From IMG/VR virus record IMGVR_UViG_3300028580_000062, positions 1 through 64,000 of that record: DNA of 64,000 nucleotides; one strand, 5' to 3'. Source of the DNA: a virus. Taxonomy: Duplodnaviria > Caudoviricetes. The position numbers and the translations under genes were made by a program. The notes beneath the pieces are model-generated. The model did no database searches. It was given only the letters and a program-made list of their open reading frames with translations, and was not told where the DNA came from. This document shows, one piece after another, positions 2,441 through 12,716 of the stretch. Position 1 is the stretch's first letter. Each line of letters opens with the position of its first letter.

Positions 2441-2783
2441 GAAAGTTCTTCCATCCATCAGCTACGAACACACCTCGTGGCCACGAAGAAGGTGAGCAAA
2501 TTTCAGGAAAAGTAGTTTTATGTCATGCTTAGGACAAGAATGCAAAAGCAATAATTCAAATTAGCGATAAAATATTTGCGAACGCGATGTAAATATTCAC
2601 GCAAACAGTAGAAAAATGCATTACAATGTGCTATAATTAAAAAGTGCATTTGTCTTAAAAAATACGTTTTGTCAGAAAGCAGTGGTTTGCTGCTTCTGAA
2701 ATTAAGTATAGAAAATCAGGCTGGTACGTTTGGGTACCGGTGGATATGTTCGGATATGAACGGATACGGAGGTGCTTTTGGCA

Positions 2784-3926
2784 ATGGTGTTTTGTGACTT
2801 CGCTCAGCGCGTATATTCAGTGATTGGCTCCGGTAGTAACACAAGTGCCTTCGCTCGCACACTGCTTGATACCATCGTTGTTTATGAGGATGAAGCTTTG
2901 AATCCGATTCAGGAATTAAAGCCTTCGACTTTCAAGGCCTACTACAATGGAACAAACAACATCACGAAAACAGCAAAAAAAATAAACGCCAACGTGGAGA
3001 CGTCAGCGTTTGAAGAATATATTGATTCTTTCCCGGATAATGCTGTTCAAGGACTCTGTAGTTTATTTGAAGAAGCCATTCCGAATATCACACCATATAA
3101 TGCGAGTCAGAAACTGGCAGAGTTGTTTGCTTCTATTATTTATGAAGCTGCTATGGCAAAGCCAAAGGCTGCGAGCAAAAAGAAAACAAGCGAGGAAACG
3201 ACTACATCCGCGCATGATAAATTGACTGCAAAAATTCTCGCCTCTGGGGAAGCGATGGCAAAGGCCTGGGCCGGGGCTGTGAATGGATTGACGGAGGAAC
3301 AAGAACAGACTGCTAAAGCAAAAAGCATCCCGGTATTAAAGCCGGGTCTACTTTCGGATGCAGATAAGGGATTACTTTGTCAATTCAAAAAAGATGTAAA
3401 AGGACTTTTGAAATACTGTATAGATAACGATCCTGCAGCACAACAGACAAAAATTAGTCTGGCAGATGAATTGCACAGCGTGCATCGGAAGTGGCAGTAC
3501 GACCTGCGCGAGATTGAGGATATCGCTTTCCGTCAGCTTGTAATCGATACGACACAAACTATGGAAGAGTACTCCTATTATGTGTCTGATGAGTTTTTGC
3601 GTCTGATACCTGGCACGGATAGATTGTGGTTTAGAAATGAATCGGCCGAAGATGGTGACCGTCTAAGAAATGTTCTCCAACCGAAATCACATGAATTAAG
3701 GCTTGCAATGGCAGAATTATATAGAAGGTTGTATCCAATTCCAGAGGAGGCAAAGCAGGATGAGGCAGAGCCAGTGGAAGCAGAGACTGTGGACGAAGAA
3801 TCATCAGGTGCCGCAGATGCAGCAGGAGATGGTGTAAGAACTCAAATAATCAACAATCCGACTATTGTAAATCAGTACGGTGAAAAGAATGTTCATATTG
3901 AACATGTTGATAATTTGAAGCTCTGA
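2784..3926 (+). CDS. Hypothetical protein with C-terminal RHIM-like motif (TIVNQYGEKNVHIEHV)
   Basis: Long ORF with GGAGGTG RBS before ATG 2784; first gene of a 3-gene operon. Confidence 0.8.
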   Translation: MVFCDFAQRVYSVIGSGSNTSAFARTLLDTIVVYEDEALNPIQELKPSTFKAYYNGTNNITKTAKKINANVETSAFEEYIDSFPDNAVQGLCSLFEEAIPNITPYNASQKLAELFASIIYEAAMAKPKAASKKKTSEETTTSAHDKLTAKILASGEAMAKAWAGAVNGLTEEQEQTAKAKSIPVLKPGLLSDADKGLLCQFKKDVKGLLKYCIDNDPAAQQTKISLADELHSVHRKWQYDLREIEDIAFRQLVIDTTQTMEEYSYYVSDEFLRLIPGTDRLWFRNESAEDGDRLRNVLQPKSHELRLAMAELYRRLYPIPEEAKQDEAEPVEAETVDEESSGAADAAGDGVRTQIINNPTIVNQYGEKNVHIEHVDNLKL

Positions 3927-3940
3927 GCGGAGGTGAGCCT

Positions 3941-4576
3941 ATGAAAGATGAAATACAAACGATAGCTGGTGTTGGCTTACCGGCAAAAACAGTAAATCAG
4001 TATGGCGAGAAAAATGTACATATTGATACAGCTGAAAATGTAACACAGAATATAAACATAAATTTTCCATATGTGCAGAGAATGGCAAATGGAACCATGC
4101 AGCCGACCAGCCGAGTCATCAATCCAGAATATTACAATTTATTTGTGATTGGTGATGAGACTTTTGAATATGATCATTTCATAGTTCCAGCAGATCGTGC
4201 GTTATCGAGATATTGGACATCAGAGGAGCTTCGGGAACGGTATGGCACTTTGTCTGAGACTGCAGTTGAGGCAATGAAAACCTTTCCAGCGCTGTTCATG
4301 CCAGAGGCAGAATTTCAACATGCAAGGGCTGGAGAAAATCAGCAAGTATTCTTTGGCTTTGTTGATGGAATAAGAAAGCAGGATAACGGAGTCAAAATAC
4401 GATGTCAGTTACTGTGGCCCATTCCCATGCAGCAAATAAGCAATATTGGTTTTGAACTTGGCATGTTAGATATGACGAGAGGCATATCAGAAATGAATCA
4501 TACGCATTGGGCAATTAAGCACATCAATCTAAAGGAAGAATTGGCTGATGCGAAGATTTCCCTGTTTGGCTTCTGA
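3941..4576 (+). CDS. Hypothetical protein with N-terminal RHIM-like motif (TVNQYGEKNVHI)
   Basis: GGAGGTGA RBS; 211 aa; C-terminal FPALFMPE...EMNHTHWAIKHINL domain of unknown function. Confidence 0.8.
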   Translation: MKDEIQTIAGVGLPAKTVNQYGEKNVHIDTAENVTQNININFPYVQRMANGTMQPTSRVINPEYYNLFVIGDETFEYDHFIVPADRALSRYWTSEELRERYGTLSETAVEAMKTFPALFMPEAEFQHARAGENQQVFFGFVDGIRKQDNGVKIRCQLLWPIPMQQISNIGFELGMLDMTRGISEMNHTHWAIKHINLKEELADAKISLFGF

Positions 4577-4590
4577 TGGGAGGTGAAAGC

Positions 4591-6876
4591 ATGAGAGACA
4601 AACTGACATCTGAAATTGTAAAATTGGACATGAACGATGCCTCCTACAAAGGTTGCGGGGTATCGATTGTGCCGACTTATGTGAATTTCTTTTTTGGAAA
4701 CAATGGTACGGGCAAATCGACCATTGGCAAAGCGATAAAAGTTGATCGTGGCGTGGAGTGGCAGCCCGGTCGTTCGGTATCCGATTATAAAGTGCATGTT
4801 TATAATCAGGATTACATTAGTGCTAATCTTCCCAACTATCATAACCTTCCAGGCGTGTTTACCGTGAATGAGGTAAATGTCACTATTCAGGCAAAGGTCG
4901 ATGAGAAGCAGATTCAAAAGGAAAAGGCATCAACTGCCTTCTCAGAAGCAGGCGAAGCGAAAACGAAAAAGGCCGCTGCGCTGCAAGAGGCATTGGAGCG
5001 GTTCCAGCAGGAGTGTTGGGAGAAAACCGCAAACTTGCGAGCAGAGTTCAAGAAAACACAAACGAACCGGATGCAAAAGAAATCCTTTGCAGAAGGGGTA
5101 CTCGAAGTAAGGACGCCCAAAGAACATGATGTGGAAGCTTTGCACCGCCTCTATGCTGTAGCCTATTCTGACGACGCAAAAAAATATGAGCTTTTTCCTT
5201 CCATTATAAATACAGCAGCGCTGGATGAACTTGAAGGCAGAGATATTCTCGGAAAAAGAATCGTAAGTAGTGCAGACACGCCTTTTGCGCAGTTCTTGAA
5301 AAAAATAAATGCGGCCAGTTGGGTACAGCAGGGCCACAAACAATTTCATGAGGCAGCAAAAGATACATGCCCGTATTGTCAGCAGCCTATGCCGCTTAGC
5401 TTTGAAGATGATCTAAAGGCTTGCTTCGACTCCAGTTATCAGGAAGCAAAGCAGGCCTTGGCAGATTATTATGAAGCCTATAGAAATGAAGCGAATGAGA
5501 TAGTAGCACCATTGCTCAAGCCGCCTGCGGTGTTGAAACCGGGCATGGACATTACGCCTTTCACTGATAAAGTAGCAGCCATAAAAGGTGTTATCTCGAC
5601 AAACCTGCAAAAGATAAAAGAAAAAATTGATGAGCCAGCTGAGCTTGTGGAAATCGAAGATGTCGCATCAATGCTAAGCGAATTGGAGAATATCATTGAT
5701 GGTTTTAACACGCTCATCAAAGAAAATAATAGCGTCCTCGATGCAAAACCAAAAAAGCAAGCAGAATGTAGAACTGCTGTCTGGGAACATTTTGCTTTTC
5801 TTTTGGCTGATCAGGTTAGCCGGTATAAAACCAGTAAGGCCTTATTGGAGGACGAAATCTCTAAGCTGATTACGGAAATTTCAACACAGCGGACAGCAAT
5901 CGGTGCACTCACACGTGAAATCGCTGAGCTCAATAAAGACTGTGTAAATACAACCGCAACAATTGAGAGCGTAAATGTACTGCTTCGAGATTCTGGTTTC
6001 CAAGGCTTTAGTATCCGGGAAAAAGAAGGAACGCCAAATGTATATGAGGTTGTTAGGCCGGACGGAAATATTGCAGAAAATCTAAGTGAGGGTGAAAGAA
6101 ACTTTATAGCATTTCTGTATTTTTATCATCAGGTTAAGGGCAGTGATAATCCAGATGGGAGCCAGCTCGATAAGATTGTTGTAATCGATGATCCCGTGTC
6201 CAGTATGGACAGCAGTGCCTTATTTATTGTGAGTGCCTTAGTCAGAGAGATGATTCAGATTTGCGAGAATAACGCAATCGGTGTTGATCCGGTCGCAAAG
6301 GCAGATTACATTAAACAAATCTTTATATTGACACATAATGCTTACTTTCATAGGGAAATCACATACAATCAGGTTAAAAATTATTTGTTTGTGAATTTCT
6401 ATTTGATCAGCAAGATTGACAATAAGTCCTCTATCAAGCTTTGCACGAAAGTCAATCCGGAAATAATGACCGAAGAAATAAACTACAATCCGGTACAGAA
6501 TTCGTATGCCGCTCTATGGGAGGAATATAAAGAAATTAATGCACCGATTCCTCTGATGAATGTTATTAGGCGAATACTGGAATATTATTTTCTACAGCTT
6601 TGCGGATACGACGGTGTGACGCTTCGAAAGCGTATTCTGATCGATAACAAGGATAAGTTCATTACAACAGATGCCAACGGCAAAGAGGATTATACACAAT
6701 ACCAAATGGCACATGCAATGCTATCTTACATCTGTGCGAATTCTGTAGGAATCAATGACGGCATCAATTTTGTAGATGACTGTGTAGATGTAGACCAAAC
6801 AAAAGAAACCTTTAGGCTTGTATTTGTGTTAATGGAACAGAAACAGCACTATGACATGATGATGGGAAATCAGTAA
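4591..6876 (+). CDS. RloC-like (AAA_13) ABC ATPase with coiled coil and zinc hook
   Basis: Walker A GNNGTGKST, hook CPYC, signature LSEGE, Walker B VVIDDPVSS, LTHN switch, RRILE motif; the RBS fits the start at 4591. Confidence 0.85.
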   Translation: MRDKLTSEIVKLDMNDASYKGCGVSIVPTYVNFFFGNNGTGKSTIGKAIKVDRGVEWQPGRSVSDYKVHVYNQDYISANLPNYHNLPGVFTVNEVNVTIQAKVDEKQIQKEKASTAFSEAGEAKTKKAAALQEALERFQQECWEKTANLRAEFKKTQTNRMQKKSFAEGVLEVRTPKEHDVEALHRLYAVAYSDDAKKYELFPSIINTAALDELEGRDILGKRIVSSADTPFAQFLKKINAASWVQQGHKQFHEAAKDTCPYCQQPMPLSFEDDLKACFDSSYQEAKQALADYYEAYRNEANEIVAPLLKPPAVLKPGMDITPFTDKVAAIKGVISTNLQKIKEKIDEPAELVEIEDVASMLSELENIIDGFNTLIKENNSVLDAKPKKQAECRTAVWEHFAFLLADQVSRYKTSKALLEDEISKLITEISTQRTAIGALTREIAELNKDCVNTTATIESVNVLLRDSGFQGFSIREKEGTPNVYEVVRPDGNIAENLSEGERNFIAFLYFYHQVKGSDNPDGSQLDKIVVIDDPVSSMDSSALFIVSALVREMIQICENNAIGVDPVAKADYIKQIFILTHNAYFHREITYNQVKNYLFVNFYLISKIDNKSSIKLCTKVNPEIMTEEINYNPVQNSYAALWEEYKEINAPIPLMNVIRRILEYYFLQLCGYDGVTLRKRILIDNKDKFITTDANGKEDYTQYQMAHAMLSYICANSVGINDGINFVDDCVDVDQTKETFRLVFVLMEQKQHYDMMMGNQ

Positions 6877-6887
6877 AGGAGAAAAAA

Positions 6888-7100
6888 ATGCGAATCAGTT
6901 ATAACAAGCTGTGGAAAATGCTAATAGATAAAGGCATGAAAAAAAGTGATTTGAAAGAACAAGCTGGAATCAGTTCAGCTTCAATCGCTAAGCTTGGTAA
7001 AGGTGAAAATATTACTACTGATGTTCTGATAAAAATCTGCGAATCTATGAATTGCCATTTAGAGGACATAATGGAGACAATTCAAGATGACGAGTCCTGA
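6888..7100 (+). CDS. Small XRE/Cro-C1 HTH regulator
   Basis: MRISYNKLWKMLIDKGMKKSDL...ISSASIAKLGKGE, a typical HTH_26-type protein. Confidence 0.85.
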   Translation: MRISYNKLWKMLIDKGMKKSDLKEQAGISSASIAKLGKGENITTDVLIKICESMNCHLEDIMETIQDDES

Positions 7101-7130: not shown

Positions 7131-7553
7131 ATGGGCGTAATTATTACGGCCCGGAATTTTTCTCCACAGAATCAAGCCGGGCTCTTAAAACCAATTGTTT
7201 ATTGCTGTCCGTATGCAGGCGTAACAGAGCATGCTGTGGCGATAGATCTTGAATTGGCACAGGCGCTAAAGGCAATTAAACCAAAGCGACGGACAATGCA
7301 AATCGAACGCTGTTTTGCAGATATACTATCGAAGCTCCCGGATGGAGTAGTGTTGAAAGATTTTGATGTACTTTTCAATCCGGACTACAAAGTTGATGTG
7401 ATGACGATGATGGTGAATACCTGCAAAGCAAAACCTTTTGGAATTCTCTGGCCAGGTACCTTTGACGGCACCAGACTTGTATATGCAGAAGAAGGATTTC
7501 AAGATTACAAAACGTATGACGTGAGCTCCTATGACATCACGTGCATCGTATAA
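7131..7553 (+). CDS. brxF: BREX type 3 BrxF protein
   Basis: LKDFDVLFNP...LWPG...LVYAEEG motifs; first gene in brxF-brxC-pglXI-brxHII-pglZ-brxA order. Confidence 0.75.
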   Translation: MGVIITARNFSPQNQAGLLKPIVYCCPYAGVTEHAVAIDLELAQALKAIKPKRRTMQIERCFADILSKLPDGVVLKDFDVLFNPDYKVDVMTMMVNTCKAKPFGILWPGTFDGTRLVYAEEGFQDYKTYDVSSYDITCIV

Positions 7554-7567
7554 GGAGGAAATGCGAG

Positions 7568-10500
7568 ATGAAATATTCAGAGCTTATTAGCTTTAGTCCG
7601 ATTGAATCTACCTTGCAGTTGATTCAGTCCAACAGCAATAAGGCAGAGGAAATCAATAACATTAAGACCTACGTGATGTCTGAGGGCATGGCGCAGAGTA
7701 TGAAAGCACCGGTTATCGACCAACTGCAAATGGATGAGGTCGTTGATAATAAAGGCGTGCTTATTGTTGGTAACTATGGTACTGGTAAATCTCACTTGAT
7801 GAGTGTTATCTCCTCCATTGCTAAAGATGCAGACAATTTGCAGTATCTGCAGAATAAGACCTTTGCAAAAGATGTGGAATGCATCGCAGGCAAATTTGAA
7901 GTGCTGCGCATTGAAATTGGTGGCGTTACTATGTCACTTTATGATATTCTGTCGGGCTACATTCAGGATGACTTTGATAAAAGGAATATCGACTTCGAAT
8001 TCCCGGAGCAGGCCACTGTTCGGAATCCCAAAAAAGTAATTCAGGATATGATGATTGCTTTCGCTGAAAAATATCCGGACAAGGGCTATCTGATTGTAGT
8101 TGATGAGTTCCTTTCTTATTTGACATCCCGTGACGAGCGCCAGATTGTTCTTGATCTGGAGTTCTTCCGTGCACTGGGAGAAATGTGCTCCAAGAGCAAG
8201 CTCCGCGTCATCTTTGGCGTGCAGGAGAAGATTTTCGACAATCCAAGATTCAGCTTCGTTTCAGATACGTTGAAGCATGTATCTGACCGTTTCACACAAC
8301 TTATCATCACCAAGGAAGCCACATCCTACGTTGTTTCCGAGCGTATTCTGAAAAAGTCACCGGAGCAGAAGGCCTTGATTCGTAAGCATCTGGAGAAGTT
8401 CTCCAATCTCTATACAGGTATGTCCTCTCGCTTGGAGGAGTTTGTAGATCTGTATCCTATTCATCCTTCGTACATTGATGTGTTTAATAAGATTTACCTG
8501 ATTGAGAACAGACACATTCTGAAGAATATTTCCACGACTATTCGGGATATTTTTGATACAGAAGTGCCGGAAAATGCACCGGGCATTATTTCTTTCGATG
8601 ATTACTGGCCTGCAATCAAGTCCAATGGACTGCTGAAGAGTGATGTAACCATCAATCGTGTCGTTACTGCCAGCGGGCAGTTGGAGGACATTATTAATCG
8701 TGCTTTCCCGAAGCCAGCTTATAAACCGTTGGCAATCAAGATTATTTATGCGCTGAGTGTGCACCGTTTGACCACAAATGGTCTGGATGTACAATTCGGC
8801 CTGACTGCTGAAAATATGAAGGACGATCTGTGCCTTTTCCTGCCGATGCCGGAGCAGGATGCAGACTTTCTGCTTTCTCTGATTAAGACAACTTTGAAGG
8901 ATATCATGACCACCGTTTCCGGTCAGTTCATCATCTTCAATGACGGCAACAATCAGTACTACATTGACGTGGACAAGGTTGTTGACTATGACGAGAAGAT
9001 TAAGCAGAAAGCTTCTGTTATGGCAGATAGCGAGTTGAATCGATTCTTCTATCAGTTGGTTTATGGATGTCTGGATTGGGACGCAAAGCAGTACGTTCCG
9101 GGCTTTGAAATCTACCAGCGAGACCTGAATTGGGATTCCCATAACATTTTCCGTGAAGGCTATCTGTTCCTTGGCCTGCCGGGAGAACGTAGCACGGCCC
9201 AGCCGGAGAGAGATTTCTATATCCACATCATGCCGCCGTACAGCGCAACTACAATCGCTGTGAAAAATCTGGAAGATGAAGTGTATTTCTTCTTTAAGTC
9301 CTCAGACGAATTTAAGGAGCTGCTCGGTCTGTTTGCCGCAGCCAACTCTCTGGCGCAGATCAGTGAGGGCAAGGATAAGGATGCCTATCTGAACAAGGCT
9401 GGTATGGTGCGCAAGAGACTTATCAAGTACTTGGGCGAGAATAAGAACACATGCTTTGAAGTGCAGTATAAGGGCCAAAAACGCCAGATGATTGAAGTGC
9501 TGAAAGGCCGCTACAACAGAGACATGGATTTCAAGGATACCGTTGACCTTGCAGCATCGGTTTGCCTCGATGAATACTTCGACAGCATTTATCCGGAGTT
9601 CCCTGTCATGAAGACCAAGGTAACCAGAAAGAACATGGCAGAAAATGCCCGTCAGGCCTTTGATTACTTTGCAGGACGCAAGACGCAACCTGCAACACTG
9701 ATGCTGCAGAGTTTTGGCATTCTGGATGGCGATAAAATCCGTCCGGAAGGTTCCAAGTATGCTGCTTACTTTATTGATTTACTCAAAAAGCTGCCGCCGC
9801 AGGGCGTTATCAACTATTCCGACATTTTTGAGTTGAAGTTTGGCGATGTGTTTGAAGATAAGAAGTTCAAGATCAGCTTTCTGTTTACACCGATTGTATT
9901 TCTGTCTATGGTTTATGCCGGTTATGCAACGATGACCCTGAAGAGTGGAACCGTCATCACGGCCTCAAATCTCGACCAGGTATCGAAGCTGGGCGTTATG
10001 GATTTGTACGAGTTCAAGTATCTGTCCAGACCGGCTCAGATTTCTATGGTGGAGCTGAAGAAGCTGTTTGAGGTGCTGGATATCAATGGCGCGCTGCTGG
10101 ATAATCCGAATGACCGTGAGGAAGGTGTGAAACAGCTACTTGCAAAGGCTCAGGAACTGAGCAATTCCTCTGTTCTGGCTGCACGCAAGCTGCAGGAGGG
10201 CTTCGAACTCTGGGGTGAGCCGCTTGCAAACGCGCAACAGGTTGATAGGATGCAGAAAGCCTGCACTGCCGTTCGTGACGAGTTCAGCAACTACTCGGCA
10301 AAATATAACACACCAGCGAAGTTGAACAACTTTAGTCTGACCGGAGAACAGGTTGATGAACTGGCAGAACAAATTGCACTCATCAAAACCGTCGCCGAGT
10401 ATGTGACCTTCAAAGACTACTGTTCGTTTTGTCTACAAATGATTATATACCAAAGAAATTCAAAGCCATTGATAGAATGTCAGTTGGATTTTATGCGTAA

Positions 10501-12716
10501 AAACTTAAAAAATCGCATTGTTAAATTTCGATTTTGTTGATATGATTTCAATGGAATAATTGATTTGCAAGTGTTATGCTATATAATATTGGAGAATTGA
10601 ATGATGAAAAAAATAATCAGTATAGTTGCTTTTGGTATTTTATCATTTATACTTGGAGCTGCTTCGGGGGCGATAGTATGGTTGATATTGAAAATAATGG
10701 ATCTTGGCATTGAGTTTTTCTGGACTTGGCTGCCGGAAAAGTTCAACGCTGACGGCAGCCTGATATACTTCATGACGGTATGCCTCATCGGAGGATGCCT
10801 TATAGGTTTGTGGCAGAAAAAATACGGACTGCTTCCAGATGAGCTGCCTGTAGTTTTGGGAAAGATTCACAAAGACGGTAGATACCCATATGATAATCTT
10901 CATATTCTGGCGGTGTCTGCATTGCTCCCGTTGATCTTCGGCGGGGCATTAGGACCTGAAGCAGGTCTTACCGGCATAATAGCCGGGCTTTGCTGCCTGG
11001 TAGGTGACAGACTCAGGTACAAAGGAGAAAAAGTGGCTGCGCTGGCGGAAACAGGCATGTCCGCTACGCTGGGAGTGATTTTTGGATCGCCGTTATTTGG
11101 AATAATCGACAGCCTTGAACCCGATAATGAAAACGAACATTACAAGGCAAAGCTTGTCGATAAAAAAACCAGAATATTTGTTTATGTGTGCGGAGTAGCA
11201 GGGGGGATGTTGATCGTAAAAGGACTGACTGCAGTCCTTGGCGGCGGAATGGGCCTTTCAAGATTTGACAGAGCACATGGCTACGGCATTGAACAGTGGA
11301 AATGGATAATCCCATTGATACTCGCAGGTATTGCCGGAGCATTTATATATTTGATATTCAATAAGCTGACATCAATGATTGGCAATAAGTTGAAAGATCA
11401 CATAATTGTAAGATGCATGCTTGGCGGAGCGGTGCTTGCTTTGGTAGGCTGGTACGTACCCCTTACAATGTTGTCGGGAGAAACCGATATGGGTACAATT
11501 ATGGCAGATTGGCAGACAATGAGCGTATCGGTGCTTTTCGTTATCGCAGTGTGCAAGCTATTCCTGGTCAATTTCTGCCTGAATATGGGTTGGAGAGGTG
11601 GAAGCATATTCCCTATAATTTTCTCGGGAGTAGCCATTGGATTTGCTTTTGCACTGATGACAGGAATGGATGGGGCATATGCAGTAGCAGTTGTGTGCGG
11701 TGCCATATATGGATATATAATGAGAAAGCCTGTGACAGTTATCGCTGTGCTTCTGCTGTGCTTCCCGGTGACTTATATAGTGCCTCTCGGGATTTCAGCA
11801 TTCATAGCGTCCAAAATACCGATGCCACGCTGCCTGGTTGAATAGTTGAATGAAATAATTACGAAAGACAGATTGCTCTGCAGTTGTGAGCTATATTGCT
11901 AATATTGAGTTCCTTGATCTTGGAGCAGTTTTCAAGCAGGAGCTTGAGGCCGGAAAGGCAGCCTTTCGCGAAATCAGAGACGACATCGCAGATGGCGCTT
12001 CCGGTGAAACGGCAGCGCAGAAGGTTACGACCGAACTGGATAAACTGAAAGATAAATACATTACGATGTACTTTGAGGAGCATAAGAAAAAGCGCCTTGA
12101 CATCGAGGATGCAAAGCGCCGTGGAAAATTGCAGGAAAGTGTTGCACTGGCAAATCTGCGCAAGCTGCGTAGCATAGAGATCCTTTCAGGTGCAAAGCTG
12201 ACTGCCATTGAACAGGATATGGCTGATCTGAAGGTCTGTTATGAACTAACACCTGTTGAGTTGAAGACAAGTCACATTTGCCCTCACTGCCACTATACCT
12301 ATGGCGACAAGGCAAAAAATGTAGCCGGGCAACTGGACAACATTGATATTCGCATGGATGATTTGGTGACGGAATGGACAAATACGCTGCTCAACACAAT
12401 CTCTGACCCGATTGTGGTTAGCCAGAAGGAGTACTTGAGTGCGGAACAGCAGAAGGTCATCGATGAGTTTATTTCCACCAAAACACTGCCAAAGCATGTA
12501 GACGATCACTTCGTGAATAGCATCAAGGCGCTGCTTCAGGGCTTTGAGCCAGTGGTTATCGATACGGAGGATATAGTTGCAAAGCTGGATGAGCTTGGCC
12601 CTTGTGATGTGGCTACATTCAAGAACAAGCTGAATAGCATTGTGGAGTCTTATATCAAGGGAAAAGATGCAGCTAAACTGCGTATCGTAGTGAAGCGGAA
12701 AGATAGTGAGGTGTAA
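7568..12716 (+). pseudogene. brxC: BREX type 3 ATPase BrxC/PglY (DUF6079 family), split by a ~1.45 kb insertion
   Basis: Walker A GNYGTGKSH, Walker B LIVVDEF; joining 10420 to 11874 restores the frame (FKDY-CSAVVSYIANIE) and gives ~1231 aa. Confidence 0.85.
10601..11845 (+). CDS. ClC/YfeO-like voltage-gated chloride channel family protein
   Basis: Many TM helices; GGALGPEAG and GGSIFP motifs correspond to ClC signature motifs; own RBS and TTGATT-16-TATAAT promoter candidate at 10560-10587. Confidence 0.8.
   Translation: MMKKIISIVAFGILSFILGAASGAIVWLILKIMDLGIEFFWTWLPEKFNADGSLIYFMTVCLIGGCLIGLWQKKYGLLPDELPVVLGKIHKDGRYPYDNLHILAVSALLPLIFGGALGPEAGLTGIIAGLCCLVGDRLRYKGEKVAALAETGMSATLGVIFGSPLFGIIDSLEPDNENEHYKAKLVDKKTRIFVYVCGVAGGMLIVKGLTAVLGGGMGLSRFDRAHGYGIEQWKWIIPLILAGIAGAFIYLIFNKLTSMIGNKLKDHIIVRCMLGGAVLALVGWYVPLTMLSGETDMGTIMADWQTMSVSVLFVIAVCKLFLVNFCLNMGWRGGSIFPIIFSGVAIGFAFALMTGMDGAYAVAVVCGAIYGYIMRKPVTVIAVLLLCFPVTYIVPLGISAFIASKIPMPRCLVE

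Follow-up and report, generated by a model that had tools for sequence, protein, structure and literature searches.

A prophage-type gene cassette in a 64,000-nucleotide stretch of viral DNA (Caudoviricetes; positions 1 to 64,000 of the IMG/VR record IMGVR_UViG_3300028580_000062, hereafter the window) encodes a putative effector, A, directly followed by a putative sensor or adaptor, B, and an ABC ATPase, C. A ends and B begins with a version of the same short, asparagine-rich tag. Such tags are found on both partners in most homologous operons. They are under protein-level selection, co-evolve between the partners, are portable, and lie at the point where a single-chain protein has been split. 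Judged by sequence comparison, the tag most likely joins effector to sensor as amyloid-type signaling tags do.

Matching tags at the facing ends of genes A and B

A preliminary description of this DNA had reported the peptide VNQYGEKNVHI at the end of gene A and again at the start of gene B. Re-reading of the sequence confirmed both copies, copy 1 at 3867-3899 (gta aat cag tac ggt gaa aag aat gtt cat att) and copy 2 at 3992-4024 (gta aat cag tat ggc gag aaa aat gta cat att). Copy 1 stands 9 residues before the stop of gene A and copy 2 runs from residue 18 of gene B. A codon-by-codon comparison also bore out the five reported differences (TAC/TAT, GGT/GGC, GAA/GAG, AAG/AAA and GTT/GTA), all of which are synonymous. 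The peptide occurs in these two copies only across the whole 73-kb contig, and an identical 11-mer shared by a 380-aa and a 211-aa protein is expected by chance about 3e-9 times (8e4 placements x 0.06^11). The ungapped BLOSUM62 score of the A/B tag pair in the window is 69, compared with 22.2 +/- 4.6 and a maximum of 42 for residue-shuffled partners. Both tags lie in regions that the AF2 models leave disordered (per-residue confidence, pLDDT, <50), in line with the proposal that the copies sit on flexible termini of adjacent gene products.

The two tags co-vary across homologous operons

Loci were collected with an alignment of B, 80 of them in species genomes and 80 in viral contigs. At each locus the gene upstream of B was taken as A, and the last 45 residues of A were compared with the first 50 of B, a score of 36 (the shuffle mean plus 3 standard deviations) being the threshold for a pair. 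This score was reached by 85 of 93 non-redundant A/B pairs (median 55; shuffled partners 22 +/- 4.6), which carry the tag on both partners rather than on one gene alone; the terminus-to-terminus layout of amyloid signaling pairs, invoked in the preliminary description, is thus general among them.

Cognate pairs scored 58 on average and non-cognate pairs 32 (partner permutation, p<=1e-4). Single-linkage clustering of the tags merged most N-rich tags into one class by chaining, and distance correlations were therefore used instead. Mirror-tree comparison of A-tail distances with B N-terminus distances gave an r of 0.87, and a partial r of 0.69 when divergence of the B globular domain was controlled for (p<=5e-4). 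Within bands of globular-domain distance, r was 0.67-0.84 up to a distance of 0.7 and 0.30 at 0.7-0.9. The co-variation of the two copies that the preliminary description had singled out as informative is thus present.

More than 12 tag classes were found, strongly different between operons and matched within each. They include VNQYGEKNVHI, ISGGNNxF, QxGxxNxxIPNYGT, FxQxGxxNTQIGY, FEQSGKGxQIGF and NFxxPVxNVNPxATTV. Examples of A tails with the N-termini of their B partners are INISGGNNSFYQHVDKL / ITVSGGNNNFVAHADTV, QNGDGNMVIPNYGTININ / QTGNDNVLIPNYGTVNIN, FIQNGDNNTQIGYIANQ / FQQTGSGNTQIGYIGQQ, FHFEQSGKGTQIGFVENY / VHMEQSGKGKQIGFVQHY and LNFYGPVQNVNPSATTVITNN / INFNAPVENVNPNATTVTTNN. Within the VNQ class, the variable fourth position is imperfectly matched (for example Y/T in locus L002 and Y/N in L024).

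Codon usage points to the level at which the likeness is kept. The same codon is used at 46.0% of 337 identical residues (32 pairs), where 46.3% is expected from the codon usage of each locus. The likeness of the tags therefore does not come from homogenization at the DNA level or gene conversion. Together with the synonymous changes in the window, this agrees with the earlier view that protein-level selection keeps the copies alike.

One metagenome-assembled genome, CALLZZ01, holds two A-B pairs (contigs L014 and L047) whose tags belong to the classes FFNFNISGNNNSF / ITLPGDGNTLIA and IQQNGDSNTILPNYGT / ITQTGNENVAIANYGT. Two differing classes in one assembled genome are what insulated, orthogonal wiring would predict, this being a single example and taken as binned.

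Composition of the tag and its relation to the RHIM

Composition was computed on 86 distinct pairs. The shared tag has a mean length of 21.7 aa and a mean identity of 49%. Asparagine makes up 18.8% of its residues (3.5-fold enriched), glutamine is enriched 2-fold, V, I, T and G are also enriched, and R, E, K, L and C are depleted; N, Q and G together account for 34% of tag residues versus 15% elsewhere in the proteins. Identity between the partners is most frequent for glycine (82%), followed by glutamine (62%). The usual pattern is hydrophobic-x-Q-x-G-x-x-N-hydrophobic-x-hydrophobic, a G/N/D turn and a second short strand, that is, a predicted strand-turn-strand unit.

The tag had been likened to the RIP homotypic interaction motif (RHIM), and this part of the preliminary description was not upheld. 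Eight isolated tails from four tag classes matched no Pfam family at E<=10 (very weak matches may be dropped by the HMMER filters), and in none of the 93 pairs do both partners have the RHIM tetrad [IV]Q[IV]G, the window tag having N-Q-Y-G. The related G-x-Q-x-G (the G-phi-Q-phi-G of BASS3/RHIM/PP) is found in both partners of 3/93 pairs, and the Q-x-G-x-x-N core of the window tag in both partners of 35/93. The resemblance to RHIMs is one of analogy, not of membership.

The tags mark the split point of a single-chain effector

The A proteins are mosaics. The head found in the window, head I, occurs in 11 of the 93 pairs, and an unrelated domain of ~250 aa starting with PRLCGGTFF, head II, in 81. 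Both heads occur with or without a helical domain, M, and an acidic linker and the tag always stand at the end.

More importantly, a second kind of operon consists of A, a protein of 232-233 aa, LmuC (Pfam MC2; PADLOC 1.3e-54), LmuB (4e-225) and an HTH_26 gene. The A homologues of these operons share the head or the M domain of the window, and the protein of 232-233 aa begins with a tag and continues with Pfam CTD6 (8e-35; CTD and MC names follow Pfam and secondary papers). The first ~148 residues of A match positions 1-148 of the 327 in the PADLOC LmuA profile PDLC03857, and the tag-CTD6 proteins match its positions 146-327 (5.6e-66, 1.8e-62). Two consecutive halves of one profile on separate tagged proteins indicate a single-chain LmuA cut into a head and a docking domain. 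The CTD6 proteins bear whichever tag class the upstream A bears. In the L087 operon both sides have the window's own class (VNQYGDHPVHIDHVENL and VNQYGERSIHAEHVENM; A / tag-CTD6 tags TIVNQYGDHPVHIDHVENL / TQVNQYGERSIHAEHVENM), and in L081, L089 and L091 the A and CTD6 tags read QQTNVVQNGxNNxNxTNNG / QQTGxxNxNVTNxPGG.

Fused and two-gene versions coexist. Head II and a B-type domain are joined in one chain in at least five clusters at 50% identity (P0188, P0177, P0195, P0240 and P0247). Of the fused clusters examined in detail, P0188 has no tag and P0177 one degenerate copy; P0188 sits at the same prophage position as the cassette of the window. The tags lie where single-chain relatives have a peptide bond.

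The Lamassu/ABC-3C link suggested in the preliminary description is thus retained in part. It stands for the head of A, which matches the LmuA model, and for the relatives with tag-CTD6, LmuC and LmuB. It falls for B, which is not a Lamassu middle component but a tag plus a domain of probable PUA-like fold, in the place of the LmuA C-terminal domain of the relatives. B matches no MC family of Pfam and no LmuC model of PADLOC, and in L081 and L087 MC2/LmuC is a separate, additional gene.

In L085 (6001-10194), and also in L086, head I and M of the window are joined to another, non-N/Q C-terminal domain (...RTKIRNLYVKLHP...DAFIDDW). The L085 protein is followed by a 933-aa superfamily 1 (SF1) helicase (PADLOC candidate PDC-S53, E 0) and then by HTH_26; here the effector head of the window seems to be connected with a helicase sensor, no tags being involved.

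Gene A encodes a putative effector

Gene A starts at an ATG with the ribosome-binding site (RBS) GGAGGTG at 2768-2774, 9 nt upstream; an alternative GTG at 2772 is in the list of open reading frames (ORFs). Its 90% cluster representative, P0044, likewise has 380 aa, and no Pfam family matches the protein. The AF2 model has a pLDDT of ~90 over head I and <50 over residues 328-366 and 373-380 of the tail. In the Atlas, residues 1-140 superpose with a root-mean-square deviation (rmsd) of 2.2 A on the N-terminal half of 301-aa ABC-3C proteins with CTD11. Profile and fold matches agree on homology between head I and the N-terminal half of LmuA (ABC-3C) effectors made as a single chain. Domain M is missing from A homologues of 217-237 aa and is found behind either head family.

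Foldseek with the A model against the PDB returned nothing at E<=0.001, and VIA-align returned generic helical bundles only (ClyA Z 9.6, YaxB 8.2, MakA 7.2). These scores are below the level that is meaningful for bundles, and pore-forming activity of A is therefore not claimed. Searches of the PDB with sequence profiles from the alignments of A, head II and B gave no credible match. A weak Atlas alignment of A to a 713-aa Bacillota NACHT + SNaCT14 cluster (172 residues, rmsd 4.8, TM 0.37/0.21) hints that similar helical heads may also occur on NTPases resembling NOD-like receptors (NLRs).

Head II (alignment A4; for example L025:4728-5618 and L017:5037-5987) has a conserved N-terminal LCGG and a later WH[YF]...(R/K)xDN. 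An Atlas feature search returned Peptidase_C39-like clusters with scores of 0.87-0.90 and low shared-feature counts, PADLOC gave no match for ten head II proteins, and a few members (L021, L036 and L039) have other residues in place of the Cys and His. Head II may be a papain-like cysteine protease.

Gene B encodes a putative sensor or adaptor

Gene B has close homologues in 43 clusters, and an exhaustive HMMER search found 1110 clusters at 50% identity (E<=0.001), mostly of ~205-225 aa. It matches no family in Pfam (also none at E<=1), NCBIfam or PADLOC. In the AF2 model residues 1-37, tag included, have a pLDDT <50, and residues 40-205 form a confident domain. The twelve best PDB matches of residues 61-211 in VIA-align are all PUA-like (ASCH, EVE, YTH, McrB-N, VcaM4I N-domain; Z 5.0-6.7), among them PH1033 (6.7), the VcaM4I N-domain (6.1), the Mmi1 YTH domain (6.0), TgMcrB-N (5.6) and THYN1 (5.0). 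Foldseek placed YTH domains on top (E 9e-4, TM 0.36-0.46), and an Atlas feature search with the domain returned unnamed clusters only. The globular domain of B is therefore probably of PUA-like fold, a fold that by itself does not demonstrate a reader function. By analogy with ZBP1 in RHIM signaling, it suggests possible sensing of nucleic acid or of a modified base.

When the B family was compared with a CTD6 protein in hhalign, the probability was 6% and the tag region alone was aligned, and B is therefore not called a CTD; gene A of the window has no CTD either. Fusions of the B-type domain to TIR, CHAT or FRG are found in other phyla, and B homologues also occur in Streptococcus prophages. 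A word-indexed search for longer relatives of B found one histidine-kinase fusion only; the head II-B fusions emerged from the exhaustive HMMER search. The B-type domain also occurs in tandem in one protein (P0261, P0281), C-terminally on a PAS histidine kinase (P0164) and N-terminally on a 781-aa protein (P0295).

Gene C is a frequent partner of the A-B pair

The start of gene C is most likely ATG 4591 (RBS GGAGGTG at 4578-4584), not ATG 4576, which overlaps the stop of B, because the former yields 761 aa as in the homologues. The protein matches PADLOC PDC-S06 end to end (2.5e-208), LmuB weakly (4e-15) and PrrC over the ATPase core only (4e-7); it has no NCBIfam match, and PADLOC returned no model named RloC for it. 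A homologue in Streptococcus phage Javan105 carries the annotation RloC. Walker A, the zinc hook CPYC (5368-5379), the signature LSEGE and Walker B DDPVSSMD are conserved in 29 homologues. The conserved C-terminal NxIRRxLExYF gives R-x3-E, with no conserved histidine in these homologues at the distance of a HEPN-type nuclease motif (Rx4-6H or an Arg-Glu-His triad).

C homologues stand behind most, not all, A-B pairs. Pairs without an ABC ATPase lie directly upstream of type I restriction-modification (R-M) genes in L010, L011 and L015, and upstream of SNF2 + DUF4391 in L017, L019, L023, L039 and L056; behind the fused form P0188 stand HTH_17, BrxA and BrxB only. A-B is therefore the constant unit. 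Gene C is frequent and probably cooperates with it but is dispensable, and is not the fixed third part for which it had been taken at first.

In many loci a gene of 64-71 aa, HTH_17/VrlI-like, follows B and precedes C where C is present (L173:5652-5846, L017:6674-6889, L174:6323-6523). It is absent from the window and unrelated to the HTH_26 gene found there.

A model for tag-mediated coupling of A and B

From these comparisons we infer a direct binding of the tags, its amyloid-like mode, its trigger and the cellular action of A. It is highly probable that the two tags bind each other. We hypothesize, with confidence that is about evenly divided, that A and B form a split effector-sensor module whose tags are joined by cooperative, in-register cross-beta (amyloid-like) assembly. 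The module, at the end of a prophage and mostly teamed with the ABC ATPase C, would have A with its LmuA-type head I and helical domain M as the executing part, and the PUA-like-fold domain of B would sense a phage cue or dock on the ATPase. Homotypic binding of the tags would stand in for the peptide bond by which single-chain relatives link head to sensor/adaptor domain. Upon infection, B would be clustered or released, and its N-terminal tags would nucleate a beta-sheet. This sheet would recruit and template the tags of A, whereby the A heads would be gathered and switched on, leading to abortive infection, as in NWD2/HET-S and Agp/Bab.

The partners are kept the same rather than complementary, which would fit parallel in-register stacking. 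This sameness, the composition, length and placement shared with amyloid signaling motifs, and the oligomerization known from Lamassu lead us to favor a cross-beta assembly over a 1:1 zipper. LmuA is activated by release and oligomerization mediated by its C-terminal domain (10.1101/2025.04.02.646746); a split version would thereby cluster the N-terminal tags of that domain, and such clustering is how nucleation is proposed to occur in NWD2/HET-S and Agp/Bab.

Several observations weigh against an amyloid-like assembly. The tags match no Pfam amyloid-motif model (eight tails, E<=10), and some classes have less N/Q or more charge (LHDKSKYFENVG in L171) or include proline (VIPNYGT, GDHPVHI). A, which is all-alpha, has no detectable similarity to HeLo/Bell membrane-targeting domains in Foldseek or VIA-align. 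The PUA-like assignment of B rests on middling Z scores of 5-6.7. Prediction of a complex of B 1-211 with the A tail 316-380 did not yield computational support for a tag-tag interface; its ipSAE values of 0.01 and 0.00, obtained without controls, neither support nor oppose binding. Finally, the fused relatives show that a plain covalent tether suffices for function, and a 1:1 tether would thus explain every comparative result equally well.

Such a tether is the alternative that survives best. A 1:1 beta-zipper or beta-hairpin heterodimer would hold A on B constitutively, without amyloid; the whole A-B unit would be released or oligomerize as in Lamassu, with neither templating nor amplification, and splitting would serve modularity and the swapping of heads and sensors. 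The co-variation, the LmuA split point and the flexibly linked fused relatives fit this scheme equally well, the charged and proline-containing classes speak for it, and so does the free shuffling of heads, domain M and partners. However, a heterodimer interface selects for complementarity and not for identical sequence, and the two partners here share G, Q and N. In addition, the enrichment in asparagine (3.5-fold) and in N+Q+G (34%), the length of ~22 aa and the disordered arms argue, indirectly, for amyloid signaling motifs and not for the usual dimerization elements. We consider the tether unlikely, yet a serious contender.

It is improbable that the tags do not bind each other and are both recognized by one third factor (ATPase C, a protease or chaperone, or a phage protein) for which A and B compete or by which they are handled alike. 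One short linear motif on two proteins is the usual sign of a common binding partner, and C adjoins in most loci. However, the same tag classes occur with three unrelated sets of neighbors (AAA_13; CTD6+MC2+LmuB; no ATPase, with type I R-M, SNF2/DUF4391 or BREX). The factor would also have to co-vary with the more than 12 tag classes, across which C stays closely similar, and the fused forms examined in detail drop one or both tags, pointing to a role in linking rather than in recognition. That the repeat is a functionless relic of the duplication or fission from which the two genes arose is hardly credible: a duplicated junction, once cut by gene fission, could leave its segment in both genes, but synonymous sites are fully randomized between the copies while the residues are kept, the tags persist and change in step in 85/93 diverged pairs, and they recur on a different partner family, CTD6.

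Organization of the cassette and its surroundings

The features of the cassette are collected in Table 1. The promoter-like site upstream of gene A is a candidate operon promoter, and no terminator-like site with a strong stem was found on the + strand between genes A, B and C. A 67-aa HTH_26 gene also follows related cassettes in L081, L083, L085, L087 and L089. Cassettes of this kind share one hotspot, the end of related Clostridia prophages, where a divergent sigma-like gene and a PDDEXK gene are their neighbors.

A BREX locus lies directly 3' of the cassette (window 7131-12716), with BrxF at 7131-7553 and BrxC from 7541. The brxC frame is broken near 10.5 kb at a chloride-channel-like gene (10601-11845), and a BrxC-like frame is present again from 11886.

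Table 1. Predicted features of the A-B-C cassette, in window coordinates
Feature	Position	Strand	Basis and remarks
Promoter-like site, TAGAAA-17-TATAAT with TG extension	2609-2637	+	10/12 consensus matches only
Gene A, 380 aa, putative effector	2784-3926	+	Head I, helical domain M, acidic disordered linker, C-terminal tag
Head I of A, residues 1-124, all-alpha	2784-3155	+	PADLOC LmuA PDLC03857, E 2.3e-22
Domain M of A, residues 186-325, optional four-helix bundle	3339-3758	+	AF2 pLDDT >90
Disordered C-terminal tail of A, residues 328-380, acidic linker then tag	3765-3923	+	AF2 model
Tag copy 1, TIVNQYGEKNVHIEHVDNL	3861-3917	+	19-residue similarity; identical core 3867-3899
Gene B, 211 aa, putative sensor/adaptor	3941-4576	+	RBS GGAGGTG; N-terminal tag on disordered arm + globular domain
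Tag copy 2, KTVNQYGEKNVHIDTAENV	3986-4042	+	19-residue similarity; identical core 3992-4024
Globular domain of B, residues 61-211, beta-barrel, probable PUA-like (ASCH/EVE/YTH-like) fold	4121-4573	+	AF2 pLDDT ~90
Gene C, 761 aa, AAA_13 ABC ATPase, coiled-coil insert	4591-6876	+	Pfam AAA_13 1.3e-122; ORF open from 4576
HTH_26 gene, small, Cro/C1-type; last gene of the cassette	6888-7100	+	Pfam HTH_26 4.2e-19

Significance

Matched terminal tags on adjacent effector and sensor genes are already known from BASS1-11 and from fungal motifs. In bacteria, one E. coli pair (Bab/Agp) is so far the demonstrated case of amyloid signaling, and the NLR/Bell pairs of filamentous bacteria are predicted cases. 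We put forward tentatively, and leaning slightly against it, the wider claim that prion-like amyloid templating is a general, portable wiring device in the prophage-borne immunity of unicellular gut Bacillota. If this were true, orthogonal families of ~20-residue N/Q/G tags would connect interchangeable heads (LmuA-type head I, and head II, which may be papain-like) to interchangeable sensors, either Lamassu CTD6-LmuC-LmuB or PUA-like-domain proteins with or without an AAA_13 ATPase. A DNA sensor of the SMC/Rad50 type would then fire its effector through an amyloid switch and not through a covalently attached domain. The principle would be extended to Lamassu/ABC-3C, which is reported in ~10% of bacterial and archaeal genomes (PMC10586767), and to a PUA-like-domain family of ~1100 clusters that gut Clostridia and streptococci have in their prophages.

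The same head and sensor domains occur either fused or split with tags of many co-evolving classes, and thus provide a natural experiment. Since fused and split-tagged versions coexist, the role of the tag is directly testable. Our data also suggest that a separate effector protein is commonly at work beside PDC-S06 and PDC-S53, which PADLOC has as single-gene candidates.

Comparison with known systems

In the literature searched, we found no link between amyloid motifs and Lamassu; the searched paper on Lamassu diversity does not describe a split LmuA, and those on amyloid motifs mention neither ABC ATPases nor Bacillota. Like RloC and PrrC, gene C falls into Pfam AAA_13. It shares the coiled-coil CxxC hook that typifies RloC, but its NxIRRxLExYF lacks the histidine of the Rx4-6H HEPN motif. 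PADLOC lists PDC-S06 as a single-gene candidate; in the loci studied here an A-B pair usually stands in front of it.

Type II Lamassu/ABC-3C (LmuA-LmuC-LmuB; DdmABC) is one of the closest known systems. Head I of A is homologous to the head of an LmuA family (PDLC03857), the relatives L081, L087, L089 and L091 have CTD6, LmuC/MC2 and LmuB in canonical order, and C is an SMC/Rad50-like ABC ATPase with a zinc hook. In these relatives, however, LmuA is split, with head and C-terminal domain on separate tagged polypeptides. The window differs further in that an unrelated protein of probable PUA-like fold takes the place of the C-terminal domain, LmuC/MC is absent, and the ATPase is of the AAA_13 type (PDC-S06). 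With the RHIM proteins of the necrosome (ZBP1/RIPK1/RIPK3), the cassette would share the combination of a nucleic-acid-sensor domain with a short homotypic beta motif that recruits an effector.

The bacterial Bell/NLR pairs (BASS1-10) and the fungal HET-S/NWD2 pairs have the same layout, with a terminal, G/N/Q-rich motif at the C-terminus of the effector and the N-terminus of the receptor, encoded by neighboring genes. Fused architectures also exist beside two-gene ones, and the all-in-one and two-gene forms have been described for amyloid-signaling NLRs (Dyrka et al., 10.1101/2020.01.06.895854). The differences lie in the domains and the hosts: Pfam finds no NB-ARC or NACHT in A, B or C, no Bell/HeLo domain is detectable, and unicellular gut Bacillota and their prophages take the place of filamentous Actinobacteria and Cyanobacteria.

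Bab/Agp of E. coli ECOR25 (BASS11; Ibarlosa et al.) is likewise among the closest known systems. This pair shares a motif of ~20 aa and mediates abortive infection by amyloid templating; clustering of the sensor is proposed to nucleate the tag, which then templates the effector (10.1101/2024.11.07.622273). The tag sequences differ, as do the effectors (LmuA-type head I + M here, Bell-like there) and the sensors (PUA-like domain, or Lamassu CTD6 with ABC ATPases, here; TPR-GreA/B-C-PIN there). Amyloid formation and defense were demonstrated for Bab/Agp and are putative for the present pairs. Both systems consist of adjacent genes in prophages or defense islands of a unicellular host, and in both a small helical effector has a C-terminal motif of ~20 aa that recurs N-terminally on the non-NLR sensor encoded by the next gene.

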